Virus record (IMG/VR): IMGVR_UViG_3300040801_004532
Span: 1-64,000 of that record
From: a virus
DNA: 64,000 nt
Strand: one strand, 5' to 3'
Position numbers and translations under genes: made by a program. Position 1 is the stretch's first letter, and each line of letters begins with the position of its first letter. This document shows, one piece after another, positions 32,294-58,353 of the stretch. A model generated the notes under the pieces. The model made no database searches. It saw nothing but the letters and a program-made list of their open reading frames with translations, and was not told the origin of the DNA.

Positions 32294-32704
32294 TTACTGT
32301 TTTTGGTAGGCTTGTTTTTTTATTTCTTTGAATCTATTTGAAAAGAATTTAATCTGATCAGAAATTTTCATCATTCTACCAGAAACCTTTTCTTTACATT
32401 TCTCAGGATTTTTGGCTTTTTGACATTTTGCCATATTCTGTTTTAATTTTTGAAGTTGAAGATTTTTAGCCGTTATCCTTGCTTTTAACATACATAAGGC
32501 TTTTTCTTCGGGCGGCAACGTGCCACATTGTCTAGCTGCTTTTGTAAAATAGTCTTTATATATTTTAAATCCATGTTGTAAAATACTAACTGCAGATAAT
32601 CCAATCCCAACTGCTGCTAGAGGAACAACCTCATCAACATAATTCAAGTGATCAAGATACTCATCAACTAGAATATGTTTTTCCATATTACACCCATCTA
32701 TCAA
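32294..32704 (-). CDS. hypothetical Lys/Cys-rich protein (paralogue of 33370..33912)
   Basis: Shared YK.Y..AA..CG…KC…P..CK.K motifs. Confidence 0.3.
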   Translation of the reverse strand: MIDGCNMEKHILVDEYLDHLNYVDEVVPLAAVGIGLSAVSILQHGFKIYKDYFTKAARQCGTLPPEEKALCMLKARITAKNLQLQKLKQNMAKCQKAKNPEKCKEKVSGRMMKISDQIKFFSNRFKEIKKQAYQKQ

Positions 32705-33350
32705 AGAAAGTATATACCTTCTTTTCGATTAATTTATCAAAATAATCTGGCATAAAACATTGTCCATTTACACAAACAAGACCATTTCTATTTTCAAAAA
32801 GCATGCTTTGCTCAAATTTCATTTCGTTAAAATCAACAACTGCTGCTTGATGTGATGGAGAAGAAACACAATCAAAGGCAATAATTGTTAGAGGAGCTTT
32901 AACCTCATTATAATCAGTTCGTCTTTCTAATTCCGCCAGCCCTCTCATGCTAAATCCAACGCCGGTTTTATCTCTCAATAACCCAAGAAGAATCCCACCA
33001 TTTGGAGTGCTTGTTGTTTCCATTTCAGCATACAACATGTTATTTCTAAATTCATAATCACGAATAATATGAGAAACTTTTTCAAGAGAAACGGTAGTTT
33101 GCCTAATACCATCAACCTGGTTATTTCCAGTTGGTAGTGGATGATCAAGTTCTGAATAAAATGCTCTTCGTCTCATTCTTGACTCGCAATTAGTCATTCC
33201 TTCAGAAAGGACAGAAGAAGGATATAATCTATGGTTCTGATTTACTTCATCCACGGTTTGAATTGGGCATCTGAAGATGGCTTTTGCGGGGGTTTCCCTA
33301 ACCATCTGTGCCTCTGCCAATACAGTACCTTCAATAATTAGCTTACCCAT
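32688..33350 (-). CDS. putative prohead protease / prohead core protein
   Basis: 220 aa. Assigned by position only, between scaffold-like genes and the capsid candidate as in T4 gene order. Confidence 0.25.
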   Translation of the reverse strand: MGKLIIEGTVLAEAQMVRETPAKAIFRCPIQTVDEVNQNHRLYPSSVLSEGMTNCESRMRRRAFYSELDHPLPTGNNQVDGIRQTTVSLEKVSHIIRDYEFRNNMLYAEMETTSTPNGGILLGLLRDKTGVGFSMRGLAELERRTDYNEVKAPLTIIAFDCVSSPSHQAAVVDFNEMKFEQSMLFENRNGLVCVNGQCFMPDYFDKLIEKKVYTFFDRWV

Positions 33351-34807: not shown

Positions 34808-36730
34808 TTAGAATGCTGCTCCTCCAAAGCCTCCTCCTGCTCCACCTAAACCGCCCATATCATCTTCATCTTTTTTAGATGGATCAAGCGATTGCTCAAC
34901 ATTTTGGTCAATATTATACTTCTTGATTTCATCCCAATCAAAATGAGATAAGTATTTCTTTTTGGCATATTCTTTTGGAATTCCGATTCGATCAAGACTT
35001 TCAATTAGACCAACAAGCTCATTCATGTATCTTGCCTCTCGTTCATATTGTAGAGATTTTGGTGCAGGAAGATTAACTTCGACGTTATCAAATATTTGTA
35101 GTGCCTCGTCTGGATCTATAATCTCAAAAACCTTTTCTAATAGATCTCTAATCTGCATACTGATATATTTTTGATGTCCAATTACAGTTCTTGCAAATAG
35201 AATATTCTCTTCACTTAATGCTGCCTTATTTGAAAGGTTTTCTTCTATTCCAATAAAACTAGGCGGAATACCCCAAGAGGCTGTTAATTGATCTCGCATA
35301 AATTTTAACTCATCTGTTTTACTTCTAACATCAACATTGCCTTCATTAAATGTACTAATATCAACAAAAGGTTTTCCATCCTTTTGTGGAATGTAAACAT
35401 CTTCGAACGTTGTAATCATACTTGGAATTGTATCAACAGTTCCAAAGCTATCAAGACTAACCTTTCTTTTTCTAAACTCTTCTTTCATCTGTTCAATAGC
35501 TTTTCTTGCATCACGAGGCAAACCAATTTCAACAGCAATCTTTCTTTTCTCTGTTGATCTCGACAATCTTTGAACTGCTAATGCAGTTTCAAGAGCAATT
35601 AAAACTTTAGCCGAATACTGTGAAGAATCAAACACTGACTCCCCATATGGATAATATTTTGTAGATGGAATTTGAAAATGAGTCATCTTGTCCGGCGGAA
35701 CATATCTGATCTCTAGTGCTTGAGTTGGATCAGAATGTTGAATCATATAGACAATAATATCTTTAAGTTCCTGATTATCTTTAAACTCGCCCATCTGTGG
35801 AATTTTCTTTTCAAGATTCCTTAAAATCGACAGACAAATATTGTTTACAGCTTCGTCTTCCAAATTCGTTCCTACGATATTCATTCCCCTAAAAGTAGGG
35901 AATACTAAATATCCAAAACAAACTGGGAACAATGAACTCTGTAGTTTAACAATTGAACTGGGTTTATGAAAAACTAAATGTATATTTGAAACCTTTACCT
36001 TTTTACTTGTATCATTTTGTTCCGAAAAAGATGAATAGTCAATCTTTATATTTAATGATCTATCCTTTTTTCCTTCTTTAAATGTTTCATTCCAAACGGA
36101 CAGATCTCCATTATTTATTTTATTTTGAATGTGGTCACGATATGCGGTTGTTTCACTTAGCATTGATTTGCTTGTAAGAGCAATCTTTGGAGAGGCAATC
36201 TCGCAGAAGAAATCGCCATATAATAGCGTATTTCTAACAACTATATCTAGTCGCTTTTCAAGCCCAATTTCTTTTATTACTTCTTTGACTCGTTTAACTC
36301 TTGACTCGGCAGATTCTTCATCCTCAATATAGCTAGTTGGTTTAACATCAAGCGATACTTTTGTAATATCATCTGGTGAAAGAATATTATCAACAAGAAC
36401 TGCCAACGCTCTATGGGCATAGTTAATATTTGAAATGATGGCTTCATACGTCTTATAACGCATCAACCTAGCGGCTTGACCAAAAGCAGCAGGACCAGCT
36501 TGGGATTGTGAAAATATCCCGCCTGCTGAAAGACCAACGCCAGTTGTTGATTTCGAAATTACAGCTCTAACTAAATCAATATATCCATTTCTTCCACTGT
36601 GGGATTTGTATGTAACAATATCCTTGACAGCTTTATCTAGAGCTGTATCAATTTTCTGAGTTTTCGTTCCTACGACATTCGACTTAAGCTGTGTAAATAA
36701 ATCTGCTAGCTTTTTATTTTCTGGCATCAA
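34808..36730 (-). CDS. portal protein candidate
   Basis: 640 aa, assigned by position in the head module. Gly-rich C-terminal tail. Confidence 0.35.
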   Translation of the reverse strand: MMPENKKLADLFTQLKSNVVGTKTQKIDTALDKAVKDIVTYKSHSGRNGYIDLVRAVISKSTTGVGLSAGGIFSQSQAGPAAFGQAARLMRYKTYEAIISNINYAHRALAVLVDNILSPDDITKVSLDVKPTSYIEDEESAESRVKRVKEVIKEIGLEKRLDIVVRNTLLYGDFFCEIASPKIALTSKSMLSETTAYRDHIQNKINNGDLSVWNETFKEGKKDRSLNIKIDYSSFSEQNDTSKKVKVSNIHLVFHKPSSIVKLQSSLFPVCFGYLVFPTFRGMNIVGTNLEDEAVNNICLSILRNLEKKIPQMGEFKDNQELKDIIVYMIQHSDPTQALEIRYVPPDKMTHFQIPSTKYYPYGESVFDSSQYSAKVLIALETALAVQRLSRSTEKRKIAVEIGLPRDARKAIEQMKEEFRKRKVSLDSFGTVDTIPSMITTFEDVYIPQKDGKPFVDISTFNEGNVDVRSKTDELKFMRDQLTASWGIPPSFIGIEENLSNKAALSEENILFARTVIGHQKYISMQIRDLLEKVFEIIDPDEALQIFDNVEVNLPAPKSLQYEREARYMNELVGLIESLDRIGIPKEYAKKKYLSHFDWDEIKKYNIDQNVEQSLDPSKKDEDDMGGLGGAGGGFGGAAF

Positions 36731-41093: not shown

Positions 41094-41348
41094 TTATTCC
41101 GCCTTTTTTCCCACTGCTTTTTCAATCCAATCAATTTTTCCTGACCCAAGACAATGGTGACAGACCAACATAGTATTGTTTGGTACCTTTGGAAATTTTG
41201 ATGTTTTAATAAATTTTGCCCTCCTCACCAAACCACTACCACCACACGTTCTACAAAACTCCTGCCCTTCTTCAAGGGCAATGTAAGTTTTGTTATAAGC
41301 ATTATATCTTTTATTCATGGAAAGGCAATACCCTCGATTTATCATCAA
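41094..41348 (-). CDS. CxxCxGxG zinc-finger protein (paralogue)
   Basis: CRTCGGSG…CHHCLGSGKIDWIEKAVG. Confidence 0.4.
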   Translation of the reverse strand: MMINRGYCLSMNKRYNAYNKTYIALEEGQEFCRTCGGSGLVRRAKFIKTSKFPKVPNNTMLVCHHCLGSGKIDWIEKAVGKKAE

Positions 41349-42708
41349 GATCTACAAACTCATCTTTGGATAAATATTTCTTTACCAAATAATGACAATA
41401 ATCCTCATCTAAACTAGCTAAGACATTAAGGGATCTTGGGATACTATGAGCTTTAACTTTTTGTTTTCTTGTTAATTTTCCTTGGTTTAAAATCCTTGTA
41501 GCTTCTAAACATTCTCTATAAAATTCTTCTTCGTCACCAGATTCATAAATTGGATAAACACGTTCTGCAAATTCTCTCATACCTTGTTGAATATCTGTAT
41601 ATAAATCCAATGTATATAATATTGAATAGACCTTAACATCTTCCCAAAATGTATTTCTACTTGGATCATAAATCCCATCAACATTAATCTTTGAAAACCC
41701 CCACTTATCGGATAGACGATCAAAAATTCTTTGTGTCATATCATGAACAGATAGATCCTTTAAAAATCTCAGATCAAGTCTATCGCTTTTGATACTCATT
41801 TTTCTAATGTAGCCATATTCATCTGCAACATGCATAAACCTTGCGTGCATTACCTGCTTATAAATACCCGATGAATCATAAGTAATGTTCAAATCAATTC
41901 CATGTTTCTTTTTAATAACGACACTAAACAATTCATAAAACAATACATCCCTGAAATTTGCACCACCAAGAATATGAAAATTTAAATGTTTGAATCCATG
42001 TCTTATGGCTTCATTTACAAGCGGAACAATAGGAAGGATATAAATCACACATGGGATTGACATATCACTAGACATATTCGCAACAATTCCGCCTGTACCA
42101 TGATACTTAAAATGTCTGAACATATCATGGTCTCTTAGGAGCTTCGTATAAATTTCCCAAAGTTTGGGGGTACGAAAATGATGAACATATATAATCTTAT
42201 CACGAACATGATCAGGAAGAGATTTGGCTTTTTCATATGACTCAAGATTTAATTTATAAACATCATCAAAATTATGAAAAATCTTGCAACCAGGTCCCGG
42301 AGGAATATCAAGAATAAATGCTTTATCATAAACATCTGCATACTCAACAAGCCACTCATAATATAATTTATAAAGCAAATCAGATTCTGCTCTTGTTAAT
42401 CTTCCAATTGAAATCTGAAAGCCACCACTATCTGCAATCAAATTACAATTATCAAAGAGTCCCCACTCTCGACACTTCCTATATAAATCACCTTCTCGTT
42501 GTTTATATTTATCAAATTTTTTCTTTCCGCCAAAATCCTGACCAAATGAATGAAGAAACCCGGCAGTTGTTTTAGAAAGAAAGTTTGATATGTCTTCTCT
42601 CGTAAAATTATTGTTAAATCTCCCTCTTCGTCCTTCGATAAAATTTTCAAGAATAGTTGCAAGCGTCTCAAATCCTGCTAGAACATATCCACTTCTTTTA
42701 ACATCCAT
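41311..42708 (-). CDS. dpdA: tRNA-guanine-transglycosylase-family protein (DpdA-like DNA 7-deazaguanine transglycosylase)
   Basis: DSGGFQ motif (IADSGGFQISIG). HILGGANFRDV region like TGT LHLxGVG. Confidence 0.5.
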   Translation of the reverse strand: MDVKRSGYVLAGFETLATILENFIEGRRGRFNNNFTREDISNFLSKTTAGFLHSFGQDFGGKKKFDKYKQREGDLYRKCREWGLFDNCNLIADSGGFQISIGRLTRAESDLLYKLYYEWLVEYADVYDKAFILDIPPGPGCKIFHNFDDVYKLNLESYEKAKSLPDHVRDKIIYVHHFRTPKLWEIYTKLLRDHDMFRHFKYHGTGGIVANMSSDMSIPCVIYILPIVPLVNEAIRHGFKHLNFHILGGANFRDVLFYELFSVVIKKKHGIDLNITYDSSGIYKQVMHARFMHVADEYGYIRKMSIKSDRLDLRFLKDLSVHDMTQRIFDRLSDKWGFSKINVDGIYDPSRNTFWEDVKVYSILYTLDLYTDIQQGMREFAERVYPIYESGDEEEFYRECLEATRILNQGKLTRKQKVKAHSIPRSLNVLASLDEDYCHYLVKKYLSKDEFVDLDDKSRVLPFHE

Positions 42709-43140
42709 TCAAATACCCCCCACCCTCCCCAATTCTGTCATTCCCTTTGAGTATGGACTTGTGGCAGCACCACTAGTTCCCGAAATCCCAGCAAATCCAA
42801 TTGATCCAGATACTCCCGATGGTCCAACACATCCACTTGTTCCAGATGTACCCATATAACCAGAAGACCCATTATAATCTGGAGGTTCAACTCCAGTAGC
42901 TTGTTCAATCCAATCTAATTTTCTTTTTCCCCAACATTTAGGGCAAATTGAAATATTCCTACATATTGATCCATCCTTCCTCGCTAATTCAATTGCTCCA
43001 CGCCCACCACAAATGGGGCACACAATTTCTCCCAAATCTTCATCTAGTTCAATTTCGCTTATTCCAGCACCATTGAAAGGGGTGCGTTTAGAAATAACTT
43101 CACCATTTAGATATTTTTTAAAATTATCTAATATTCCCAT
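42709..43140 (-). CDS. Zinc-finger (CxxCxGxG) protein with a collagen-like C-terminus
   Basis: CPICGGRG…CPKCWGKRKLDWIEQATG followed by GSSGYMGTSGTSG…. Confidence 0.45.
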   Translation of the reverse strand: MGILDNFKKYLNGEVISKRTPFNGAGISEIELDEDLGEIVCPICGGRGAIELARKDGSICRNISICPKCWGKRKLDWIEQATGVEPPDYNGSSGYMGTSGTSGCVGPSGVSGSIGFAGISGTSGAATSPYSKGMTELGRVGGI

Positions 43141-43151
43141 TTATTCACCAC

Positions 43152-43676
43152 CTACAATTTTTCTATTACAATACTACCACCAGTGGACGAATCAAATTCC
43201 ATTGCACATTTTAACGCCAACTCAATTCGTTTTACTGGTTCCATATCATTGTTTAGTTCTTGTATTGCTTTCAAAGATCCCAAAGCATATGTACCGCCAG
43301 ATCCAATAGCAGTAAATTCATCCACGGTACTAATATGAAAATCAACCAAAATTTCATATAGCTGCTTTTTGTAACCAATAATAAGATTGGATACCCACGC
43401 TTCAGTTTGGTCGTCTGTAATAGCAAGACATCCCTTTTCTCGACAATGATTTCTCAGATAATCAGGGAAGTCAAGTATATCTTCTGGAGGGTCAAAAAAT
43501 TTAGAATGTAAAATTTGACACCCCCTTGCGCTGCCAACTGCACCCAGCAAATAATTTCCAACTCTAAATATTTTTTGGGCTTTAATGGGACGAATGTCAC
43601 CGCCTTCAGACGATCCTCTGGTATCTGCTCCTATATAAACATTTCCCTTATGTTTTATTCCTACAACACATGACAT
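43152..43676 (-). CDS. HslV-like Ntn-hydrolase peptidase (proteasome beta-like)
   Basis: MSCVVGIKHKGNVYIGADTRGS…AIGSGGTYALGSLKA aligns along E. coli HslV. Ser replaces the Thr1 nucleophile. Confidence 0.6.
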   Translation of the reverse strand: MSCVVGIKHKGNVYIGADTRGSSEGGDIRPIKAQKIFRVGNYLLGAVGSARGCQILHSKFFDPPEDILDFPDYLRNHCREKGCLAITDDQTEAWVSNLIIGYKKQLYEILVDFHISTVDEFTAIGSGGTYALGSLKAIQELNNDMEPVKRIELALKCAMEFDSSTGGSIVIEKL

Positions 43677-43677
43677 T

Positions 43678-44478
43678 TTATTCCCCCTTTAATTTCATAT
43701 CATCTCTCATCCTAAGACATTTTGCTAGATCAAATGAGTAGTCGTATATATGTAACCCTTTACTTGAAGCAAATATTTCTCCATCTTCAATCCCAATCTC
43801 TTCTGTAATATATTCCTTTAATAATTGAATACCAGCAAGATTTGCAGGGAATCCTCCCCATAGGTCCCACGATCTGAAATATGGATAAAAGTGAAGTTTT
43901 CCATCTTGAATCCTTGTATCAATGTGTCTTAAACATGGAGGATCTTGTAAAAGCATATCAGTTGGATGTGCAACTTGTAAAACCATTTGATTATTTCTGT
44001 AACCTTTATTTTTATATGTCCAAATTAACAGTTCAATTTGATTTAAATGCCAATGACCGGTAGAATAAATAATGCCAAGATCAATTAATTCCTCAATTTC
44101 CTCTATGAGAATATTTGGCCAATGACCCTCCTTATATAAATGTAAGGGATAATTTATTGGATACGCAGTTAACCTTTGACCATATGTATATGATTCCCCA
44201 TCTTTTAATGCTCCAGTCATCAAATACGGAAGGTATTCATCTAGATAATCATCAGCTACAGGGTTTGGAATATTATGGTGTGCTTCTATCTGAGGTAAAA
44301 GAGGTTTTGACCAGGGATGTTTAATATGAACATTTACCCAATCAAATTCTAATCTTTTTTGCCCAGCATATGATCCCCGGTCAATTTTAAATACTGAACC
44401 TTCTTCAAGGATTCTAAAAAGAGTTTGAAACCAAGCATCTCCTAAATCTCTGGCTTCAATCGTTTGAACATTAAGCAT
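43678..44478 (-). CDS. Thymidylate-synthase-family enzyme (ThyA or dNMP hydroxymethylase)
   Basis: PC…DGKL…RSWDLWGGFPANLAGIQLL…G…HIY aligns with the ThyA catalytic region. Asn is present at the N177-equivalent position. Confidence 0.55.
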   Translation of the reverse strand: MLNVQTIEARDLGDAWFQTLFRILEEGSVFKIDRGSYAGQKRLEFDWVNVHIKHPWSKPLLPQIEAHHNIPNPVADDYLDEYLPYLMTGALKDGESYTYGQRLTAYPINYPLHLYKEGHWPNILIEEIEELIDLGIIYSTGHWHLNQIELLIWTYKNKGYRNNQMVLQVAHPTDMLLQDPPCLRHIDTRIQDGKLHFYPYFRSWDLWGGFPANLAGIQLLKEYITEEIGIEDGEIFASSKGLHIYDYSFDLAKCLRMRDDMKLKGE

Positions 44479-44490
44479 TATCTATTCCTT

Positions 44491-44817
44491 TCATGATATA
44501 ATTTTAGAATCTTCTTTTGGGGCTTCAAGGGTAAATTCATCAAGTGATTCTCGAGTTTTCTCATCTATAAGAAAACCATAAATTTCGTCAACCTTTAAAA
44601 CCTTCAAGAGGGATTTCCCAATTACCACATCCATTCCACCACGAGGATGCATAACAAGAATATCTCCTTTATTTATACCTTCAACTTTTAATCCAACAGA
44701 TAGAACCTTGCCATATGCTTGTGGATCCTGAACAGTTTCCGGAAGGATTATTCCTCCTGACGATTTACTTCTCTTCAGAACTTGTACTATAACTTTGTCT
44801 TCGATTGCTTCGATCAT
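44491..44817 (-). CDS. groES: Co-chaperonin GroES (Cpn10) homologue
   Basis: IEAIEDKVIVQ…KSSGGIILPE…GKVLSVG pattern. Confidence 0.55.
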   Translation of the reverse strand: MIEAIEDKVIVQVLKRSKSSGGIILPETVQDPQAYGKVLSVGLKVEGINKGDILVMHPRGGMDVVIGKSLLKVLKVDEIYGFLIDEKTRESLDEFTLEAPKEDSKIIS

Positions 44818-45124
44818 TTTGTTTAGCTCCCTTCTTTTGCTTCTTTTTTTTACGAATGATTTTTTCTTTCAACTTCTCCAACTTTTCTTCTTCTTTTTGT
44901 ATTGCTCTTATAGATTGGACTTTTTTTCTTCTTTTCCTATCGCTAGGTTTCTCATAATACATCTTTTCTCTAAACTCTTTGGCAATACCACTCTTTGAAA
45001 ATTTCTTACGAAAGCGTTTTAAAAGTTCTTCATCACTCTCGTCTTTTCTACGAACTACACATATTCCTGTGTGTTCATCAGGATAATAATGTTTATGATA
45101 AGTCATAGCTTGAATATTTGCCAC
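44765..45124 (-). CDS. rpsU: Ribosomal protein bS21 homologue (phage-encoded)
   Basis: VVRR…ELLKRFRKKFSKSGIAKEFREKMYYEKPSDRKRRKK aligns with bacterial S21. Confidence 0.55.
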   Translation of the reverse strand: MANIQAMTYHKHYYPDEHTGICVVRRKDESDEELLKRFRKKFSKSGIAKEFREKMYYEKPSDRKRRKKVQSIRAIQKEEEKLEKLKEKIIRKKKKQKKGAKQNDRSNRRQSYSTSSEEK

Positions 45125-45133
45125 CTCCCTTCA

Positions 45134-45805
45134 TTATACAAATCCATAAATTATATGGTCTCTCGATGAAAAGCTGAAACCATATTTCTCGCAAATATCA
45201 AAAACAGCTGCAGAATTTTTAATGAGATCTACCCTGGTTGTTCCCTCAGGCATAACCCAAACTCTATGGTTCCAACTAAGGTTTTTATAATTAGCGGAAA
45301 TATTGGCCAAAAACTTTTCAATCAACGGACTATCATCATATACAACTTTTATATAAACTTCTGGAAAACTTTCTAGAAGTTTAACATTTTGTAGTGCTGA
45401 TGATAGATCACTATCATTAAAGATTTTTGGCGAATAAACATATCTAACATGTTTATCAGGAGAAACCTCTTGAATTAACTGGAACAATTTATACCCATTT
45501 GATTCAACATTTGCAATTGGATAGTCCAGCTCATTAAGTAATAAAGCGGCTTCATCAAAATGTTTTGGAACCGTTGGTTCTCCACCTGTAATCAAAAGTC
45601 CTGCATTTGTTCTATAAATTGTATCTTGAATATCTGAAAGAAGATGCGGAGCCTCTGCTGAGATTCTCATTTTTACAGAGGTATCACACCAAGGACATTT
45701 CAGATTACAAGTCTTAAATCTGAGAATGATCATTGGTCGCCCGCTATCAATTCCTTCGCCTTGCCATGAAATAAAATTTTCGATTAATTTAACACTTTTA
45801 CTCAT
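45134..45805 (-). CDS. queE: 7-carboxy-7-deazaguanine synthase QueE (radical SAM)
   Basis: WQGEG…CNLKCPWCDT…ITGGEP… Aligns with E. coli QueE and has the same length (223 aa). Confidence 0.65.
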   Translation of the reverse strand: MSKSVKLIENFISWQGEGIDSGRPMIILRFKTCNLKCPWCDTSVKMRISAEAPHLLSDIQDTIYRTNAGLLITGGEPTVPKHFDEAALLLNELDYPIANVESNGYKLFQLIQEVSPDKHVRYVYSPKIFNDSDLSSALQNVKLLESFPEVYIKVVYDDSPLIEKFLANISANYKNLSWNHRVWVMPEGTTRVDLIKNSAAVFDICEKYGFSFSSRDHIIYGFV

Positions 45806-45840
45806 TTATAATTTCCCCTTTCGTTTATTGTTTGTTCTGA

Positions 45841-48800
45841 TTATATAGTTAATAGTTCCGACTTTTCTCTTATATCAGTCAGCGGCTTAAGCATTAGCTC
45901 ATGCCTATCCATAAATGAAAATCTCAATGCTGCGTTTAAATCAGGGACAAAAAATGCTGGTAGCCTCCTTTCTTCATCGGGAATAGCAATTACCTCAAGT
46001 TTATTACCACGCCCAATAAATTTATCATATTTAGCTCTTATTTTTTCTCTTTCTTTATCATCTTGTATTTTATCAAAATCAATTCCTCTAACCCAGAACA
46101 TGTATGCCTTATTTCCAGGTCTATGAATATCATACATTATATTATTCCAGGCTTCCATAGCTCTAACGCCTTGTGGAATTGTTTTATAATCGCTTAGTTC
46201 TTTTCCCCAAGTTACAGGTCGAGCAATAGTTTTATCGCCTTGAATAATAAGATCTTTAAATTCCTTTTCTTTTCTTGACACATATTTTATAACTTTTGAT
46301 AATTTAAATTTTTCATCTTTCAGGATCAGCTCTGAAAGCTCTGATAAAAATTCTTTTGATTTACTTGGATAATCTGATCTTTTAATTTCAACACCCATAT
46401 AATTAATCTTATCAACTTCTTTTCCTTCGTTATTTATAACACGAATTGCATATCTCTTTTTAGCCAAAAACAATCCTCGTGAAATAACAAGCTCATTTTT
46501 TAATTCAAGGCGATTAAATTCTAAATTAACATTGTGTCGTTTAACCATTTCAACAATTCGATGTTTATTTAAAAATTCTTCAACCTCTTTACACCATCCT
46601 TGAATTTTCTCGACTGATAGATCTTTATTTTTAAACCCTCCAAAATAACAGAAAATTGAATCTGTATCGCCTGTTATTATATATTCGTTATTTCTTTCGG
46701 GCATTTCATCTGAGTACATTTCTTTTTTGGTTAAGGGATTGGGGTGCTCGTATTTTTCATTCTTGTCTATGTGCCTCATAAAAGCATCACCTTCAATAAT
46801 TGATGTTTTTAATGCCTCTTGTCCGGATAATGTTACGGCCCCTGCTACATCAATATCAAAAAATCTAAATGCCTTATTAGCTACAACTCCATATAATGTA
46901 TTTGCAAGGACCTTATAAACTAACTGTCTTGTATAAAAGAAATTTTCGGAATCTTTATCTTTTTCTTCAATCGCTTGAAACATCTCTTTTTTATATCTTT
47001 TTCTTGTTTTCATTAACATATCAACGACCTCACCAAAAACAGAAAACTCTTTTTCGTGTGGTAAAAAGAAACATCCGTTGATTGTATAAACTAAATTATT
47101 TTCTTTAACTTTTTTCATTAACTGGTCAGGAGTAATAACCATCTCTTTCTTTTCAAACAATGGATCATATACAACCTCAATTTTCTCCGGAAGATTTTCT
47201 GGATGATATGCTAATTCATAACCAAGATGTGAGTCTTTAGTTTTCATTACATAACTATTCACGCCAATGTTATATGTAATCATAATACTTGGGTATAGAG
47301 ATGCAAAGTCAAAGTCTGTAATCCAATCATATGCGCCTGGAATTGGACTAAAAACAAATGCCCCCGGATATTTTCCTTTTTCAGTATGAGGGTCAGAATT
47401 TTTTGAACCGAAACCTTTATTTCTAAGATATGATACCATCAACGAATCAATTTGACCAAATGATGATACAGAATCAAATGAAGTATTACAAATTATTCTT
47501 AACTCATTAAGCAGGTTAATATGAGCTAATTTATCATCAAGTTGCTCAAGGAGATCTGTATCCCGAATGTTATATTCAATTGTCTTATTAAACATTTTCC
47601 AATACATTTCATTGAAAGGTAAGGGCAGATCTATTTTTGTAATCCCCAACTCATGTTGTGCAATAAAACCAAGTTTATAATTTTCCATTTTTGTAAATGT
47701 AAATGTCCTATATAAAAAGTCCTGATCAATTGCTACACAACCAGGAATATGGCAAACATATTTTGAACCGTCAACATAAAACTCGCCAAATCTATTGAAC
47801 ATTGATTGCTTTAATCCAATCTTTGGCATTCTGTTATATATATATTCAAGGTCGAATGAAATACAGTTCCATCCTGCAATAAAATCAGGATCTTCACTTT
47901 TAAAATCTTTGGAAAATTCCCTCAACAGTTCCTTTTCTGTATTAAAAATTTTAAAATCAACCCCATCAATTTTTTCAATCGGTTCTGTTTTATTGTCAAC
48001 TACATAATGTGTTTTGGTTTTATTGAATATTGTTGTAAGCATATTAATTGGAAATTTGGCCTCTAGAGGACGGGGGAAAACTCGCTCATCCCCTGTATCT
48101 ACCTCAATATCGAAAAACATAATATTTGATTTAACTTTTTTAGCTTCGCCTTTACTGTAATGATAATAATCCATTGCATGTTTCGCTGTTATTCTGACAT
48201 CACCTTCGTATGTTATATCAGGATCTAAATTATATCTATCTCGGTATTTCACCTTAATTTGATTTAAATGATCATAAGGAACAATCTTCTTTCCTTGATG
48301 TCCCTTTTTTATTTGATAACAAACATAATCGTCATTCTCCGTATGATATATTTTTCTATTGTCCTTATCACGAAATATATAAAGGATTTGACTTGTTTTG
48401 TTAAGAAACTGAACATCAATCAATCTATAATCATCTGAATAAAATTGCTTTGGAATCTTATATCTAAATATTCCAGCCCCCATAGATTCAATATCATGAT
48501 GCGAAACCTCTATGTCTTTTCCACTCAACATTGTAGAAATTTGCCCCATCGCTTCTTCAAATTTTGGTTCCCAAACTCCCAAATTTCTATTGACAAACGA
48601 AGGATGAACTATTATGACAGTTTTAAACCCATTCCATTCTGTAACCTTGCCATGAATTTTTGTTATGCCTGATTTTCCCATTCCAAATGCAGACATAGGA
48701 CTTCCGCCCATAATAACAACAAGTTTTGGATTACAAATCTTTGTTATATTTATACAATTGATTTTGCAGTTTTTAATAACATCATCATCTGGGTTGCCGG

Positions 48801-49080
48801 TTGTTCCATCATCATTTAAGGTTTGACAAAGGACAACATTTGTAAGAAGGTAATTGCATTTATTTAAACCAAATTTATTAAAGTATTTTCTAAATAATTT
48901 CCCAGCCTTCCCGACTAATGGATTACCTTTTTTAACTTCTTCTTTACCAGGATTTTCTGCGATAAAAACTACATCTACTTTTGATAAATCATCTTCACAA
49001 TTTGTTTCAAGAATACACGAAGGGAATTCTAAAAGTTTACACTCGGCACAATTTGCAAAAGACTTTTTTATTGAAAACAA
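45841..49080 (-). CDS. Family B DNA polymerase with an N-terminal UDG-like (family 4) domain
   Basis: N-terminus VVFIAENPG…GNPLVGKAGKLF (UDG motif). FFDIEV (Exo I), DFASLYPSIM (motif A), K..ANTLYG (B), GDTDS (C). Confidence 0.85.
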   Translation of the reverse strand: MFSIKKSFANCAECKLLEFPSCILETNCEDDLSKVDVVFIAENPGKEEVKKGNPLVGKAGKLFRKYFNKFGLNKCNYLLTNVVLCQTLNDDGTTGNPDDDVIKNCKINCINITKICNPKLVVIMGGSPMSAFGMGKSGITKIHGKVTEWNGFKTVIIVHPSFVNRNLGVWEPKFEEAMGQISTMLSGKDIEVSHHDIESMGAGIFRYKIPKQFYSDDYRLIDVQFLNKTSQILYIFRDKDNRKIYHTENDDYVCYQIKKGHQGKKIVPYDHLNQIKVKYRDRYNLDPDITYEGDVRITAKHAMDYYHYSKGEAKKVKSNIMFFDIEVDTGDERVFPRPLEAKFPINMLTTIFNKTKTHYVVDNKTEPIEKIDGVDFKIFNTEKELLREFSKDFKSEDPDFIAGWNCISFDLEYIYNRMPKIGLKQSMFNRFGEFYVDGSKYVCHIPGCVAIDQDFLYRTFTFTKMENYKLGFIAQHELGITKIDLPLPFNEMYWKMFNKTIEYNIRDTDLLEQLDDKLAHINLLNELRIICNTSFDSVSSFGQIDSLMVSYLRNKGFGSKNSDPHTEKGKYPGAFVFSPIPGAYDWITDFDFASLYPSIMITYNIGVNSYVMKTKDSHLGYELAYHPENLPEKIEVVYDPLFEKKEMVITPDQLMKKVKENNLVYTINGCFFLPHEKEFSVFGEVVDMLMKTRKRYKKEMFQAIEEKDKDSENFFYTRQLVYKVLANTLYGVVANKAFRFFDIDVAGAVTLSGQEALKTSIIEGDAFMRHIDKNEKYEHPNPLTKKEMYSDEMPERNNEYIITGDTDSIFCYFGGFKNKDLSVEKIQGWCKEVEEFLNKHRIVEMVKRHNVNLEFNRLELKNELVISRGLFLAKKRYAIRVINNEGKEVDKINYMGVEIKRSDYPSKSKEFLSELSELILKDEKFKLSKVIKYVSRKEKEFKDLIIQGDKTIARPVTWGKELSDYKTIPQGVRAMEAWNNIMYDIHRPGNKAYMFWVRGIDFDKIQDDKEREKIRAKYDKFIGRGNKLEVIAIPDEERRLPAFFVPDLNAALRFSFMDRHELMLKPLTDIREKSELLTI

Positions 49081-49221
49081 ATAAATGCCTCCTCAGTTTA
49101 GTTTTGATTTTGTTCCGATTAAAAAAATAATTAACCATTTAAAAAAACATTCATCTATATATATTAATAAGTGAAAGTAGGTTGGGCGCCTAATATTTAT
49201 TACCGAAGAAAGGAGAACAGC

Positions 49222-50043
49222 ATGACCGAACATGAAACGACAGCAATTACCAAGCAAGACGTGGAAAAGGTTGTGTCAGTGATTTCGATCAATGACGCAG
49301 AAAAAATCCTCGGAATCAAAAACGAGCCTCCGTACGACATCAAAAAGCTCCTCCATGAGTATCACATCGGTTTTGAAGTTCTCATGGAAAACCGCGAGTT
49401 CAAAAAGCTTCGCCCTTTGACGGATGCCAAGAATATCATTCTTCGGCACCTCATCGAGAACCAAGTCGAAGAGAACGGCCGGTTCGACATGGAAGGGGTT
49501 ATTCCGTTTGAAGATGCTTGCACGTCTTGCCACGGCACCGGGGAATTATATAAATTCTTCCGGCGAGTCGTCACCCTCGATTGCAAATTCTGCGAGGGCG
49601 AGGGTGAAGTTACTTTAGAGTGCCGGGCCTGCGGCGGATCCGGTCGCTATATACGAGAGTACGGCGACCTGAAGATCGATGTGGCTTGCAAAAAATGCGA
49701 CAAAGATCCCGAAACCGGCGACCCCCTTGGGGTTGTGACTTACAAATGCCGGCGGTGTCGGGGAAAAGGAACATTCCGGAAAACCGTGATTGACAGCAAG
49801 ATCAAATCCACGACCCATTGTAAGGTTTGCAAGGGCCGGGGGTTCATCGTTCCGGATGATCGGTTCCCTCCCCGAAGGGGTCAAACGATTCAAATTGCCA
49901 ACCCGGTCATCAAGGAAAGCGACCTTGAATCAATCGGAAGCGTCATCAAGGAAAGCAAGCCGGAAGCGGCCGAAATCTCCATCGAGGAAGACAACCTGGA
50001 ATCACTCGAAAGCGCCATCAAGGATTCCCCCGCAAGCGAATAA
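49222..50043 (+). CDS. DnaJ-type CxxCxGxG zinc-finger repeat protein
   Basis: Six CxxC.G.G repeats. aaggag RBS. GC-richer than its neighbours. Confidence 0.5.
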   Translation: MTEHETTAITKQDVEKVVSVISINDAEKILGIKNEPPYDIKKLLHEYHIGFEVLMENREFKKLRPLTDAKNIILRHLIENQVEENGRFDMEGVIPFEDACTSCHGTGELYKFFRRVVTLDCKFCEGEGEVTLECRACGGSGRYIREYGDLKIDVACKKCDKDPETGDPLGVVTYKCRRCRGKGTFRKTVIDSKIKSTTHCKVCKGRGFIVPDDRFPPRRGQTIQIANPVIKESDLESIGSVIKESKPEAAEISIEEDNLESLESAIKDSPASE

Positions 50044-53841: not shown

Positions 53842-53918
53842 CGGGGCGTGGCGCAGCCTGGTAGCGCGCCTGCTTTGGGAGCAGGAAGCCGGAGGTTCAA
53901 ATCCTCTCGCCCCGACCA
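53842..53918 (+). tRNA. tRNA-Pro (anticodon TGG)
   Basis: Cloverleaf folded by hand: acceptor cggggcg/cgccccg, anticodon loop tttggga, T-loop ttcaaat, CCA encoded. Confidence 0.8.
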
Positions 53919-53957
53919 CCCAATTTTAATTTTAAAAAACATAAAGGTCGAATAGTT

Positions 53958-54203
53958 ATGGTGAGGGTCATCCATAGGAATTGCAACAAACCAGCTTTTT
54001 ATTTTAAAAGCCGATTGGATATTGGGGATATTATATATGCCTCAAATATAATTTTCCTGGATGGATCAACTCCAGAACCGGACACCCCTATGATTTGTGG
54101 TTCATGCAACCAAATGATTTTATCAGGCGAATTAGAACAAGAAGGTTGGACCGACTGGTTTATGGTCGAAGAATTTCACACATTTGAAAACAAGAAAGGA
54201 TGA
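53958..54203 (+). CDS. hypothetical protein
   Basis: 81 aa. Confidence 0.3.
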
Positions 54204-54207
54204 GAAA

Positions 54208-54474
54208 ATGTCGTTGTTTGCAAAGAAGAAAATGACCCATGCTGAAATCGTTGCTCCATTAAAAACCATGGCTGAAACTCTATCAAGCTATATAAAAGAT
54301 CAAGCAGAAACCATTGGGGAATTGAATGTAAAAAAGAGAGAGATCGACAATCAGATTGAATTTTCAAATGAAGAAATTGAAAAATCAAACCATACAGTTG
54401 AGCAGATTAAGAAAATGGTTAACCTTCCCAAAATCAAGAAAATGCCGGCTGATTCGGTTCCTTCGGATGAATAA
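54208..54474 (+). CDS. hypothetical coiled-coil protein
   Basis: aaggatgag RBS. The ORF track starts at 54184. Confidence 0.35.
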   Translation: MSLFAKKKMTHAEIVAPLKTMAETLSSYIKDQAETIGELNVKKREIDNQIEFSNEEIEKSNHTVEQIKKMVNLPKIKKMPADSVPSDE

Positions 54475-54557
54475 CAATATGCCTGCGTGGCGATTAAATT
54501 CTTATATTCGAACCCTAAATTATTTTAGAACAAAAAAATAAAAGGGGTTCGACTATA

Positions 54558-55328
54558 ATGATTTGTGAATATTGTAAAAATAAACACGATGGATCATATG
54601 GATCGGGGAGATTTTGTTCTTCAAAATGTGCCAGGGGGTTTTCTACATCAAAGAAAAGAAAAGACATTAACAAAAAAGTGTCGGAAACTCTTAAAGGATA
54701 TAAAACAATTCCTGGCGGAAAAGTTAAATTATGCGATTATGGTTGTTGTAAAGAAGCAAAATTTCAATTGAAAAACAAAAAATGGTGTTGCTCAGAAAGC
54801 CATAATAAATGCTCAGCTGTTAGAAAGAAAAATTCTAAAGGTTTGACAAAATCGCATAAAAATGGGCGTCCTGCTTTTCCAGAAGGAGCTTATTTAAAGG
54901 GGCATGAGTCATTCAAAAAAAATCTTAAAGAAAAATATAAAAAGTTAAATTTTATTGATAAACCTATAGCAGAAAAACGAAAAATTATATTAAAGGATCA
55001 AAACAATAAATGTGCCATTTGTAATATTGAACAAGAATGGAATGATAAACCTTTAATTTTCCATCTTGATCATATAGATGGCAACAGAAAAAATTGGAGT
55101 AGAGATAATCTAAGATTTATCTGTCCCAACTGTCATAGCCAAACAGAAACATATTGTAGGGGAGGTAATAAGAACATATCAAATAAGCAGCTTAAAAAAT
55201 TACTAATAGAAACAAACTTTAATTTTACAAAAACTTTAGAATTAGCAAACTTATTTCCTGGTGGTTATAACTGGAACCGTGTTAAAAAAATAGCAAGTAA
55301 AATGTGCCAGGGTGATGGAATTTGGTAG
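54558..55328 (+). CDS. HNH homing endonuclease
   Basis: CAICN…HLDHIDGNRKNWSRDNLRFICPNCH. N-terminal zinc finger. The 3' end overlaps tRNA-Leu. Confidence 0.55.
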   Translation: MICEYCKNKHDGSYGSGRFCSSKCARGFSTSKKRKDINKKVSETLKGYKTIPGGKVKLCDYGCCKEAKFQLKNKKWCCSESHNKCSAVRKKNSKGLTKSHKNGRPAFPEGAYLKGHESFKKNLKEKYKKLNFIDKPIAEKRKIILKDQNNKCAICNIEQEWNDKPLIFHLDHIDGNRKNWSRDNLRFICPNCHSQTETYCRGGNKNISNKQLKKLLIETNFNFTKTLELANLFPGGYNWNRVKKIASKMCQGDGIW

Positions 55329-55392
55329 ACATGTATGTTTTAGAAGCATATGCCGTAATGGCGTGGGAGTTCAAGTCTCCCTCCTGGCACCA
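55306..55392 (+). tRNA. tRNA-Leu (anticodon TAG), type II
   Basis: Acceptor gccaggg/tcctggc, anticodon loop tttagaa, long variable arm, T-loop ttcaagt, CCA encoded. Confidence 0.75.
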
Positions 55393-55398
55393 AATCAA

Positions 55399-55872
55399 AT
55401 GAAAGTGAAAACAAAAATGAGCGATCATTTCCTTGAAGCGAGAATTCCATGTTATAAATGCCTTGTTATTTCAGCATGTAAAGAATTTAGTTGTCTTGAT
55501 GAATACCAAAAGGAAGCATTGAAAAATAATTATAGACAAATATGCCTAATGATTCCACAACCTGATTCACAAAATAAAAACTATAAGAAAAGTCTTTTAG
55601 AATGTTGGGCGAATTTAGGACATAGAATTTCTTCAAGTGTACAAAATAGTGAATCAGGCGATGTCAAGGAAGGAGATAGTGTTAAAATAAATCCTTCTTT
55701 ATCTTTTCTTATAAATGATCTATCTGCATTAACACAATGGATTATAAACTCCTCTAGTTGGAGAGAATCAGAATTCTACGAATTTGATCGTTTTGAAATA
55801 TCAAGGCGATTGGAAATTCTATTAAGAATTGTAAATTCAAGCCCGAGTAGCTCAGCTGGCCAGAGCGACTGA
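55399..55872 (+). CDS. hypothetical protein (start uncertain)
   Basis: The ORF track starts at 55312 inside the tRNA. The first Met after the tRNA is at 55399. The 3' end overlaps tRNA-Thr. Confidence 0.3.
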   Translation: MKVKTKMSDHFLEARIPCYKCLVISACKEFSCLDEYQKEALKNNYRQICLMIPQPDSQNKNYKKSLLECWANLGHRISSSVQNSESGDVKEGDSVKINPSLSFLINDLSALTQWIINSSSWRESEFYEFDRFEISRRLEILLRIVNSSPSSSAGQSD

Positions 55873-55917
55873 TTTGTAATCAGTAAGTCGGGGGTTCGAC
55901 TCCCTCCTCGGGCTCCA
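55841..55917 (+). tRNA. tRNA-Thr (anticodon TGT)
   Basis: Acceptor gcccgag/ctcgggc, D-stem gctc/gagc, anticodon loop tttgtaa, CCA encoded. Confidence 0.8.
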
Positions 55918-55938
55918 AAAAAAAGAAAGGATTGAATT

Positions 55939-56106
55939 ATGAATCCAGATGGGTATCATTTGGCATCAACTATATTCCTTCTGGTAAATGGGATTTGGTG
56001 GGGTAAAAATACTCCAATAAATCTTTTAATAAAAACTATATTCTGGAGTCTTGGTATATGGGGGGTAATTATTTGCCTTATTGATTTTGGATTGCTAACT
56101 CCTTAA
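55939..56106 (+). CDS. small membrane protein
   Basis: 55 aa with two hydrophobic helices. Confidence 0.25.
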   Translation: MNPDGYHLASTIFLLVNGIWWGKNTPINLLIKTIFWSLGIWGVIICLIDFGLLTP

Positions 56107-56116
56107 TTTAGATAAA

Positions 56117-56193
56117 GCCCCCGTAGCTCAGCGGAATAGAGCATCTGACTTCTAATCAGAGGGTCGCAGGTTCGAATCCTGCCGGGGGTACCA
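56117..56193 (+). tRNA. tRNA-Arg (anticodon TCT)
   Basis: Acceptor gcccccg/cgggggt, anticodon stem tctga/tcaga with loop cttctaa, T-loop ttcgaat. Confidence 0.8.
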
Positions 56194-56206
56194 CCAAAAC
56201 AAGGAA

Positions 56207-56509
56207 TTGCTAATGCTTGGAATGAGAGAAGAAATTTCAGAAATGATAGAAAATATCACATGTATAATCATAGGGCCACTTATTGTATTTATAGTTTTAG
56301 CAATAACCTCTATTGCTTTTATATTTTATAAAAATCCTTGTAACAAATGTATATTAAAAGTAAGGTGCTCAGAAGTATGTCATCAATCTAAAAAGTGGGA
56401 TTCAGCTCATGACATTTTTAACGACGCTAAAGAAATGCCAATATTGGCGGCAGCGGGTGCCTGTTATATTTTAGCAGTTGGAATAGCATTATATAATCTA
56501 CTCGTATAA
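56207..56509 (+). CDS. small membrane protein with a Cys motif (paralogue of 56761..57063)
   Basis: TM helix followed by PCNKCILKVRCSEVC. Confidence 0.35.
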   Translation: MLMLGMREEISEMIENITCIIIGPLIVFIVLAITSIAFIFYKNPCNKCILKVRCSEVCHQSKKWDSAHDIFNDAKEMPILAAAGACYILAVGIALYNLLV

Positions 56510-56540
56510 TTTGGTTAACCTGAAACAAGGCAGGAATTAA

Positions 56541-56798
56541 ATGGGAATTGAAAATCTTGAAGAGTTCAGAATAATTAAAGAAATTATCAGAAGGGACGGG
56601 GTCGGGATTCCTGATAGAAATGGATGGAAACCAAAAAGAGGTATGATAGTTGAGTTAAAAGACGGAAGACATGAAGTCTTTCGAACTACAGTTAAATCGT
56701 CTCTTGAGGAAACTATTATTCCACTCCTACCGCAAATCGAAAGAATAACATTCATTCTAGATGATGAAGAATATGAATTGGCTATATGTGATTGGTGA
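56541..56798 (+). CDS. hypothetical protein
   Basis: 85 aa. Confidence 0.35.
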   Translation: MGIENLEEFRIIKEIIRRDGVGIPDRNGWKPKRGMIVELKDGRHEVFRTTVKSSLEETIIPLLPQIERITFILDDEEYELAICDW

Positions 56799-57063
56799 AA
56801 ACGCTGCTTATGTTTATACACAAATTATATGGTTGCTTGTACGACTATGGGTATATATAACAGTAAAAGATCCATGTAAAAATTGTTTAATTAAATCATG
56901 CTGTACAGAAAAATGTGAAGAAAAAATTCAAATATTAAATTTCATATATCCTGAAGAAAAAGAAGGCGATGCAAAATTTATCGGGGTGCTTTGTCTATTT
57001 GCATTGGTCGTTCCTTCTTTTCTTTTGATATACTTTACAATTATGATAATTGCAGACCTGTAG
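56761..57063 (+). CDS. small membrane protein with a Cys motif (paralogue)
   Basis: DPCKNCLIKSCCTEKC followed by a C-terminal TM helix. Confidence 0.35.
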   Translation: MMKNMNWLYVIGENAAYVYTQIIWLLVRLWVYITVKDPCKNCLIKSCCTEKCEEKIQILNFIYPEEKEGDAKFIGVLCLFALVVPSFLLIYFTIMIIADL

Positions 57064-57127
57064 CCAAGCGGTAAGGCACGAGGTTTTGGTCCTCGCATCC
57101 CAGGTTCGAATCCTGGCAGGTCTGCCA
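57054..57127 (+). tRNA. tRNA-Gln (anticodon TTG)
   Basis: Acceptor agacctg/caggtct, anticodon stem cgagg/cctcg with loop ttttggt, T-loop ttcgaat, CCA encoded. Confidence 0.7.
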
Positions 57128-57241
57128 ACTCGAAAGGAAAATAAATGAAAGAAATTCAATTTCATCAAGTCAAAATTGATTTCTATTGTGATCGTTGTGA
57201 AGCAAGGGAAAAGGGTGTAAGCGTTCAGGAATGTATTTTCA

Positions 57242-57685
57242 ATGGTCCGCCCATGTGTCAAAAATGTGACGAAGAAATGTCACCGGTCAAAATCTTTCTC
57301 GACAAGTGAAAGGAACGTCATGACCGAAGAGCAAAGGTTTGAGCAGTTAATCGAAGATGAACGTATCAAAAATGTTACAACACTATTAAAAAAGATTGAC
57401 GAAAACGAAGTTCATTTTCAGGATCCAAATATTCAAGCGATTTTAGAAGAACTTTCTTCTTCCGAGAAGAAATTTTACAAATGGGTTTCATTGGCTGATT
57501 CCCTTCCGCGCGGATCCAAACTATTCAAATTATTAGTAAAGGTTCATAAACTCGGTATGATGGGGCATGAGAACTATCAAAAAATCTATGGTGACACGGT
57601 AGATAAGGACACGGAAGTCAGAGATAAATTATACGAAGATACTCCATTTGATAAGTTGGATGTCGATCAGGCATTTTTTGATTAA
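57242..57685 (+). CDS. hypothetical protein
   Basis: 147-aa ORF; the true start may be M at 57320. Confidence 0.35.
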   Translation: MVRPCVKNVTKKCHRSKSFSTSERNVMTEEQRFEQLIEDERIKNVTTLLKKIDENEVHFQDPNIQAILEELSSSEKKFYKWVSLADSLPRGSKLFKLLVKVHKLGMMGHENYQKIYGDTVDKDTEVRDKLYEDTPFDKLDVDQAFFD

Positions 57686-57691
57686 AACAAT

Positions 57692-58155: not shown

Positions 58156-58175
58156 ACTATTTTAGGAGGGAAGTA

Positions 58176-58346: not shown

Positions 58347-58353
58347 ATTAAAT

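Follow-up and report, generated by a model that had tools for sequence, protein, structure and literature searches.

The window analyzed here is a stretch of 64,000 nucleotides (nt) comprising positions 1 to 64,000 of IMG/VR virus record IMGVR_UViG_3300040801_004532. On its minus strand, between a QueE-like radical-SAM gene and a gene for a Cpn10/GroES co-chaperonin, lies a small open reading frame (ORF) of 119 amino acids (aa) that a preliminary description, made from the sequence alone, had assigned to bacterial ribosomal protein S21 (bS21), the commonest viral ribosomal protein. The ORF is predicted to encode a phage version of bS21. Its product passed both curated models with wide margins, scoring 46.1 bits with PF01165 of Pfam (gathering score, 27; E value, 4e-12; residues 24-74 on profile positions 3-53 of 55) and 47.7 bits with the NCBIfam equivalog TIGR00030 (cut-off, 28.95), and it also matched phrog_21469 ("ribosomal protein S21"; E value, 1.4e-8). 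Significant hits to S21 profiles were thus found, and the S21 assignment is correct; the protein family is unstudied, and its leader is unusual. A sequence search of the Protein Data Bank (PDB) returned 28 distinct bS21 chains at an E value of ≤0.01 (best E value, 1.7e-7), and the core, KRFRKKFSKSG...MYYEKPSDRKRRKK, aligned residue for residue with the solved bS21 chains, in columns that are invariant in the family.

The product of the S21 ORF is basic, with an isoelectric point of 10.1 and 38 lysine or arginine residues among its 119, and exceeds canonical bS21 in length by about 45 aa. Both the N-terminal extension and the Lys-rich tail that had been pointed out earlier are real and are kept in the aligned homologues. 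The extension places about 15 to 18 aa ahead of the canonical bS21 N terminus, and profile matches start only at residue 24 to 26. Its family consensus is (S)YHKHYYPxEHxG(I/V)C, in which E17, G20, and C22 are invariant, and AlphaFold2 confidence over it is low. Zinc binding by its His and Cys residues was considered and ruled out, as only C22 is invariant and the His sites vary to R, N, Q, M, and Y. In the Lys-rich segment (residues 78-102), 12 residues are Lys or Arg, and this basic character is kept across the family, in which the C-terminal helix is prolonged by a stretch rich in Lys, Arg, and Glu.

At least 189 metagenomic homologues, which share the aromatic/His-rich extension and the long Lys-rich helix, were found at an E value of ≤1e-3; those listed are 92 to 165 aa long. 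An alignment of 25 homologues (53 to 99% identity) contains 24 invariant columns, including those of the RFR, KSG, KPS, and RRK motifs. A 99%-identical protein, already named S21, is encoded on a 248-kb JGI metagenome contig, and an exact-sequence lookup of the protein itself (P0001) returned no record. A scan of 1.84 billion representatives clustered at 50% gave 742 clusters at an E value of ≤1e-3 and only 22 at ≤1e-10, indicating that the close family is compact. The features of the locus are compiled in Table 1.

Table 1. Positions of the S21 gene, its signals, and other genes in the window
Feature	Coordinates	Strand	Evidence or remark
Listed ORF, GTG to TAA	44765..45124	-	119 aa
Most likely S21 coding sequence, 116 codons + TAA from ATT 45115	44765..45115	-	Profile matches; start analysis of 80 5' regions
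Extended Shine-Dalgarno (SD) sequence GAAGGGAGGTGG	45121..45132	-	1 nt after TAA of radical-SAM gene; 12 consecutive pairs, 2 of them G-U
GTG of ORF lister, rejected as start	45122..45124	-	Part of the SD
ATT, candidate noncanonical start	45113..45115	-	8 nt after GGAGG; 116 aa
ATG, alternative canonical start	45104..45106	-	17 nt after GGAGG; 113 aa
N-terminal extension MTYHKHYYPDEHTGI	45062..45106	-	Aromatic/His at 6 of 15 residues; none in canonical bS21
Ribosomal_S21 core, residues 24-74 of 119-aa ORF	44903..45055	-	PF01165; solved chains; model helices 31-45 and 47-58
Long C-terminal helix with Lys-rich segment, residues 62-99	44828..44941	-	AlphaFold2; predicted local distance difference test (pLDDT) up to 93
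groES SD AAGGGAG, inside S21 codons	44827..44833	-	Conserved "KG" of S21 tail
Out-of-frame overlap of last 17 S21 codons + stop with groES 5' end	44765..44817	-	53 nt
Cpn10/GroES co-chaperonin, constant downstream partner	44491..44817	-	PF00166, 41.7 bits vs 21.1; phrog_3188
QueE-like radical-SAM gene, constant upstream neighbor; stop codon abuts S21 SD	45134..45805	-	phrog_2076, E value 1.3e-31
Family B DNA polymerase with N-terminal uracil-DNA glycosylase (UDG)-like domain, first gene of co-directional module	45841..49080	-	Pfam on homologues
Major head protein	29971-31422
Prohead protease	32688-33350
Portal	34808-36730

Leader and start codon of S21

The anti-SD is the 3' tail of 16S rRNA that pairs with SD sequences. 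When this pairing was computed with a generic 16S 3' tail (GGAUCACCUCCUUUCU), the S21 leader gave a duplex of -20.1 kcal/mol with 12 pairs and ranked first among the 87 ORFs of the 64-kb window, for which the median SD was -9.3 kcal/mol with 6 pairs and the second-best ORF reached -14.7 kcal/mol. Only two runs of at least 12 pairs exist on both strands of the window (128 kb), and the S21 SD is one of them. The same was seen in the family: 80 S21 leaders had a median of -20.45 kcal/mol and 12 pairs, compared with -10.5 kcal/mol and 8 pairs for the adjacent groES leaders, and in 35 of the 45 loci of at least 3 kb the S21 leader held the longest run on the coding strand. S21 genes from phages that are more distantly related (those of locus L007, Salicola phage SCTP-2, and LR756504) possess an ordinary SD or lack one. 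The leader RNA itself (45075-45185, minus strand) gave no evidence of a regulatory hairpin when folded (z = -0.69), and no report in the literature library searched ties phage S21 genes to extended SDs.

The second anti-SD complement of at least 12 nt, GAAAGGGGGTGA, lies at 27083-27094 on the plus strand and is followed after 4 nt by GTG 27099. The ORF from this GTG runs to 27485, looks GC-richer than its surroundings, and is on the strand opposite to that of ORF 26960-27424.

The 5' boundary of S21 was examined in 80 distinct homologous 5' regions anchored on GGAGG. The frame of 119 aa reported earlier exists exactly where it was placed, but its GTG is not the start, and the real product is more likely 116 or 113 aa long. 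As a start, this GTG would have zero spacer after GGGAG, is separated from the conserved protein by in-frame stops in L001, L102, L114, L117, and L148, and is out of frame in the GGAGGTGAT subgroup. Relative to S21, the nucleotides GGAGGTG(A) are preserved in two different reading phases (translated as R-E-V or G-G-D), and because of this and the in-frame stops downstream of it, we read it as an SD and not as coding sequence. Standard gene finders miscall the start of this gene family, placing it at a GTG, TTG, or ATG in varying positions.

Downstream of the SD, an in-frame ATT, ATA, or ATC (ATH) occurs 7 to 9 nt after GGAGG in 71 of the 80 regions, compared with an out-of-frame ATH in 1 of 80. 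No canonical start follows the SD in 20 of 80 relatives, and in L117 an ATA is the only candidate between an in-frame TAA and the conserved YHK. The ATT of the window stands 9 nt after GGAG, which is the spacing of the groES ATG and falls inside the 4- to 11-nt range of the other genes in the window; the ATG stands 18 nt after GGAG, and its 17-nt spacing from GGAGG is outside that range. An ATG occupies the 4- to 11-nt slot in only 1 of 80 regions, although it is one mutation away from ATH. SD length and start covary: SDs of at least 11 pairs were found in 62 of the 71 leaders with an ATH and in none of the 9 without, in which the SD is ordinary and a canonical start stands at the usual distance. 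Since an in-frame ATH at the spacing dictated by the SD is conserved, and since the spacing of the ATG is outside the range of the window, comparison of the 5' regions makes ATT 45115 the most likely start, at about an even chance, with ATG 45106 the alternative at slightly less than that. In the GGAGGTGATC subgroup, a fully formed helix would leave only 2 nt before the ATT; by the geometry reported in PMC13000457, this would favor in that subgroup a GTG 13 to 14 nt after GGAGG.

The long SD combined with a weak start codon suggests translational control that is specific to S21. It is possible, though we think it somewhat less likely, that S21 is instead an ordinary phage gene starting at the ATG, in which the long SD and the ATH are quirks of the lineage and have no special regulatory role. 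A strong ribosome-binding site would be plausible for a small, highly expressed gene, and an in-frame ATG or GTG does lie 12 to 20 nt after GGAGG in the window and in 57 to 60 of the 80 relatives. Gene callers likewise put many homologue N termini at MSYHK..., rpsU SDs of 10 pairs occur in some uncultivated bacteria as well, and the distant S21 genes that have ordinary SDs use GTG or ATG (L007 and SCTP-2). What tells against this reading is the pattern just described, namely the frame bias of the ATH, the restriction of long SDs to leaders that have one, the near absence of ATG from its slot, the relatives that are left without any canonical start, and the 17-nt spacing.

Overlap with groES, gene order, and origin

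At its 3' end, S21 runs out of frame into groES. The overlap of about 50 nt noted in the preliminary description is real and conserved: among 78 distinct S21/groES junctions, taken from about 90 loci, 72 overlap by 4 to 107 nt and 6 have no overlap, and the reading phase agrees in 70 of the 78. The overlap lengths cluster at 8, 23, 53, 59, 80, and 83 nt, which correspond to the stop codons that the S21 frame encounters in the conserved 5' coding sequence of groES. Over groES codons 2 to 11, variability at the first, second, and third positions of groES codons was 0.73, 0.33, and 1.33 bits, respectively, so that the most variable nucleotides are those in position 1 of S21 codons and position 3 of groES codons. 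AlphaFold2 confidence is low after residue 100, where the tail is predicted to be disordered. The tail motif KG...ND(R/Q)SxRRQ corresponds to the groES SD, the groES ATG (A-ATG-AT read as Asn-Asp), and the GroES N terminus read in the S21 frame. Because variability follows the codon phase of groES and the tail is disordered in the model, the last 17 residues of S21 are best seen as a passenger of groES, with the functional C terminus roughly at the groES start.

True dual coding, in which the distal tail is functional and its D-(R/Q)-S-x-R-R-Q motif is needed for S21 function, could account for the alignment of this motif across many homologues, for the invariant D104 in alignment A1, and for the shared reading phase. 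We consider it improbable, because the invariant "ND" and the "KG" are the start and SD of groES seen in the S21 frame, the nucleotides most free to vary are the first positions of S21 codons, and the tail, which is of low pLDDT, extends anywhere from 1 to about 34 codons beyond the groES ATG, with the six nonoverlapping junctions lacking an overlapping tail altogether.

The gene order PolB, radical-SAM (QueE-like), S21, Cpn10/GroES, and ThyA-like was found in every locus inspected (L001-L006; contigs of 92 to 304 kb), with a DnaB-like helicase and a T4-type portal further along, and the same module is present at all 78 junctions. No close cellular homologue was detected in a search of one genome per species (185,579 species). 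The best match, at 51% identity, is in L007 (DAOVGR010000022.1; 48.5 kb), which was deposited as the metagenome-assembled genome of a Thermoplasmatales archaeon; since it carries the same phage module (PolB, an HD-domain protein, radical-SAM, S21, GroES, ThyA-like, and HslV-like), we regard it as a misbinned phage contig. Given the lack of a close cellular relative and the phage nature of this sole 51% match, S21 has, judging by its relatives, long been inherited vertically among phages and was not captured recently from a host. The lineage consists of widespread, uncultivated large phages with a T4-like core and a fixed module of PolB, radical-SAM, S21, GroES, ThyA-like, and HslV-like genes. 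A cellular rpsU on a misassembled or contaminating contig, or one recently acquired from a host, is hardly credible, since overlapping phage genes on the same strand flank S21 on both sides, the module is constant, and nothing above 51% identity exists among the species representatives, even though bS21 is universal in bacteria and phage copies are thought to be host derived (PMC6375957).

That the gene is phage encoded, as proposed earlier, is confirmed by the window as a whole, which contains several tail fiber proteins, a portal, a prohead protease, a major head protein, and 11 tRNAs. The phage is distant from those in GenBank: megablast of positions 43000-49200 against GenBank phages gave no match, the polymerase and the major head protein share only 22 to 28% protein identity with T4-like and other large GenBank phages (the polymerase about 26% with T4-like polymerases by tblastn), and tblastn of S21 against phages gave only four weak matches, two of them Staphylococcus records covering the core alone. 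The polymerase (1079 aa) keeps its UDG-like fusion in all related contigs (PF03167 + PF03104 + PF00136). An Rfam scan of the window identified nothing beyond the 11 tRNAs, in particular none of the known leaders, and a promoter and terminator scan of the 42.5- to 50.5-kb region gave the same counts as shuffled sequences, so that transcript boundaries cannot be inferred.

Several genes of a proteostasis type lie around S21. Besides groES, these are a gene for an HslV/proteasome-like peptidase at 43152-43676 on the minus strand (phrog_1040; E value, 1.6e-24) and one for a DnaJ-type zinc finger protein at 49171-50043 on the plus strand, opposite to S21. In Salicola phage SCTP-2 (L176), the S21-like gp193 is flanked by ClpX and ClpS homologues. 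McNutt et al. raised, as a speculation, the idea that phages with S21 could carry a protease for the removal of host bS21 (PMC9976891).

A weak match to queuine tRNA-ribosyltransferase/DpdA-like proteins lies at 41311-42708 on the minus strand (phrog_887; E value, 3.5e-5), and a divergent thymidylate synthase-like gene lies at 43678-44478 on the same strand. Together with the QueE-like gene, they suggest, by their sequence similarities, a pathway of DNA base modification (7-deazaguanine and/or modified pyrimidine).

The 11 tRNAs lie among small ORFs at 53842-63455 on the plus strand (Pro, Leu [three], Thr, Arg, Gln, Met/CAU [two], and Ser [two]). One of the two CAU tRNAs (60409-60493, plus strand), called as tRNA-Met, has initiator-like hallmarks, namely an unpaired U1-U72, a GGG/CCC anticodon stem, and A73, and also a 3-bp variable arm and a class II-like length of 85 nt, which is an odd mix in an S21-carrying phage. 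In the other (58354-58431), positions 1 and 72 are paired; it may be an elongator tRNA-Met or a tRNA-Ile2.

Proposed role and its alternatives

The best explanation of these data, and one that we consider likely, is that S21 is a vertically inherited phage bS21 with a role on the platform of the 30S subunit, translated by means of a long SD and a weak start and coupled to groES. That phage S21 biases initiation toward phage mRNAs is a published hypothesis (PMC6375957, PMC9723584, PMC7162821). By analogy, S21 made during infection would take the bS21 site on the 30S platform beside the 3' tail of 16S rRNA. This would bring its N-terminal extension close to the mRNA exit and to the SD/anti-SD helix, and the extension could shift which mRNAs initiate well, and its aromatic residues might contact leader RNA, as suggested for other phages (PMC7162821). 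Translation of S21 itself would be driven by the 12-pair SD, starting at the weak AUU 8 nt on or else at the AUG 9 nt further. Such a combination of a long SD and a weak start possibly senses or creates bS21-free subunits; a candidate model is the leader of Flavobacterium rpsU, which is translated by bS21-free subunits because its 13-bp helix and bound bS21 cannot coexist. Ribosomes that finish S21 would pass the SD and start of groES and stop 53 nt inside it, and GroES synthesis is thus probably coupled to that of S21.

Several points weigh against this explanation. The relatives in the start analysis share phylogeny, and their counts are therefore not independent. The generic 16S tail may not be that of the host, and an Escherichia coli-like tail, counted by hand, gives a run of about 10 pairs. 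For comparison with cellular rpsU leaders, the controls were few (n = 11), and 10 pairs are reached in some of them. The AlphaFold2 model, with helices at residues 31-45, 47-58, and 62-99, is of moderate confidence (pLDDT, 74; predicted template modeling score, 0.33), and Foldseek returned zero matches for it in the PDB, an unsurprising outcome when an extended helical protein is modeled off the ribosome. Finally, the Flavobacterium mechanism operates in a different setting: there, the other genes lack SDs, the anti-SD is sequestered via Tyr54 of bS21, and rpsU starts with AUG, and the first two of these features are what the mechanism relies on, whereas in this phage the remaining genes carry moderate SDs, bS21 lacks Tyr54, and AUU is the likely start.

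A bolder version, which we regard as doubtful, would make the S21 mRNA a self-priming converter of ribosomes. Its 12- to 13-bp helix would form only on 30S subunits that are free of bS21, or would evict host bS21, and the S21 made would fill the vacated site. The weak AUU would make initiation hinge on the long helix, and host bS21 would be swapped progressively for the phage variant, whose aromatic extension would favor phage leaders. The GroES, DnaJ-like, and HslV-like genes and the initiator-like tRNA at 60409-60493 might join the same program of takeover. A precedent for eviction is that 65% of wild-type initiation complexes of Flavobacterium johnsoniae on rpsU mRNA were affected in this way.

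Less probable again is an action of the S21-like protein off the ribosome, as an RNA chaperone or with a phage or host RNA or protein partner, to which the extensions would be the adaptation. The roughly 45 additional aa, which form lineage-specific N- and C-terminal segments, and the chaperone- and protease-like neighbors, which are not translation genes, would suit such a role, and an extraribosomal bS21 has been reported in the OLE ribonucleoprotein complex (PMC12054373). The rRNA-binding core is nevertheless strongly conserved, with the 24 invariant columns described above, the sole phage bS21 tested enters ribosomes (PMC6375957), and an S21-specific leader that is complementary to the anti-SD points to a logic linked to the ribosome.

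The lineage offers a clean comparative handle on how phage bS21 reaches ribosomes and what it changes there, as some 80 diverged relatives all keep S21 at a single place in the operon. Further handles are an anti-SD complement of rpsU length, unlike those of its neighbors, a probable weak non-AUG start that covaries with the SD, and the interlock with groES. If the leader acts like that of Flavobacterium rpsU, translation by bS21-free ribosomes would be no peculiarity of Bacteroidota, and phages would exploit it. If the mRNA also converts ribosomes, specialized initiation dependent on bS21 would extend beyond Bacteroidota, and a defined phage mechanism for bS21 exchange would be at hand.

Comparison with known systems

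In Bacteroidia, bS21 contributes to sequestration of the anti-SD through Tyr54, which stacks on A1534 (PMC7797042, PMC13000457). The best-matching solved chain (9i5v_9) has this Tyr; its counterpart in the alignment with the 119-aa ORF is Arg73, which is invariant in the 25 homologues. In the window, an SD motif lies 3 to 12 nt upstream of 42 of the 87 ORF starts, compared with 33 of 406 internal in-frame start-like codons (8%), and many of these SDs are AGGAG or AGGAGG. With Arg at the Tyr54 site and phage genes that use SDs, S21 is by its sequence not of the anti-SD-sequestering Bacteroidia type. Because Arg73 replaces Tyr54 and SD use by the phage genes is widespread, the host is probably not a member of the Bacteroidia; a Bacteroidetes host was considered and judged unlikely on the same grounds, and the earlier general remark on phages of Bacteroidetes probably does not apply here. 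Neither ranking of relatives carried a host signal: the nearest cellular bS21 proteins in the genome scan, from Planctomycetota, Omnitrophota, and Magnetococcales (27 to 51% identity), were pattern driven, and Bacteroidia-type, Staphylococcus, and Bacillus chains of the PDB all scored 30 to 35 bits.

The phage bS21 that has been tested is that of the Pelagibacter phage HTVC008M, which enters E. coli ribosomes; about 1,300 metagenomic phage bS21 genes were reported with it (Mizuno et al. 2019, PMC6375957). S21 resembles it in being encoded by a large myovirus of a lytic type and in its presumed substitution for the bS21 of the host on the 30S platform. The bS21 of HTVC008M is reported to be 54% identical to that of its host (PMC6375957), whereas the family described here has no close cellular relative; it also differs from HTVC008M in its N- and C-terminal extensions and in its place between a radical-SAM gene and groES. 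A tblastn search against HTVC008M detected nothing at an E value of ≤1e-3.

The freshwater Bacteroidetes jumbo phages of Chen et al. (2022, PMC9723584) are similar in being large (293 to 331 kb, compared with about 248 kb here), low in GC, and rich in tRNAs, and in having S21 within roughly 8 to 15 kb of portal, protease, and capsid genes. All of their bS21 proteins carry an aromatic residue at the Tyr54 position, and the gene occupies the reverse strand amid TerL, portal, and MCP (PMC9723584). In the lineage described here, by contrast, S21 is co-directional with its neighbors in a replication and chaperone module, the residue is an invariant Arg, and the phage uses SDs.

Basic and aromatic N-terminal extensions have been noted in the rpS21 of huge phages and proposed to bind RNA and favor phage mRNAs (Al-Shayeb et al. 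2020, PMC7162821). An aromatic N-terminal extension as a general feature is therefore not new; what sets this lineage apart is its YHKHYYPxEHxGIC motif, together with its long Lys-rich helix. The one huge-phage S21 inspected, on LR756504.1 (L175; a 636-kb uncultured phage), is of the short Bacteroidia type (...KAIYVQQ, with Tyr54) and has an A/T-rich leader without an SD.

The closest parallel to the leader is rpsU of Flavobacterium, which forms 9 to 13 pairs below -13 kcal/mol, the strongest SD there, and is preferred by bS21-free ribosomes (McNutt et al. 2023, PMC9976891; Arpin et al. 2026, PMC13000457). In Flavobacteriales, the 9- to 13-bp helix is required for rpsU, and the 13-bp helix sterically excludes bS21 (PMC9976891, PMC13000457). 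As in F. johnsoniae, the strongest SD of the window belongs, by a wide margin, to the bS21 gene (12 pairs and -20 kcal/mol, as ranked over 64 kb with an assumed tail). At the level of sequence, this likeness to the Flavobacteriales rpsU leader is a resemblance and not membership.

A different parallel is infC, the gene for initiation factor IF3, which is autoregulated through its AUU start codon. Like infC, S21 encodes a component linked to initiation and may keep a weak AUU-type start across lineages, a start that is deduced here from comparative sequence alone.

A precedent for the way in which the phage protein is proposed to act is the variant swapping of Francisella tularensis, in which exchange of bS21 paralogues is reported to change the translation of particular mRNAs (PMC9578407, PMC13374519). 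Those paralogues are chromosomal and belong to one bacterium, whereas S21 is phage borne. Set beside these systems, the S21 gene is probably a known kind of host takeover gene that is unusual mainly in the length of its SD and in its probable nonstandard start.

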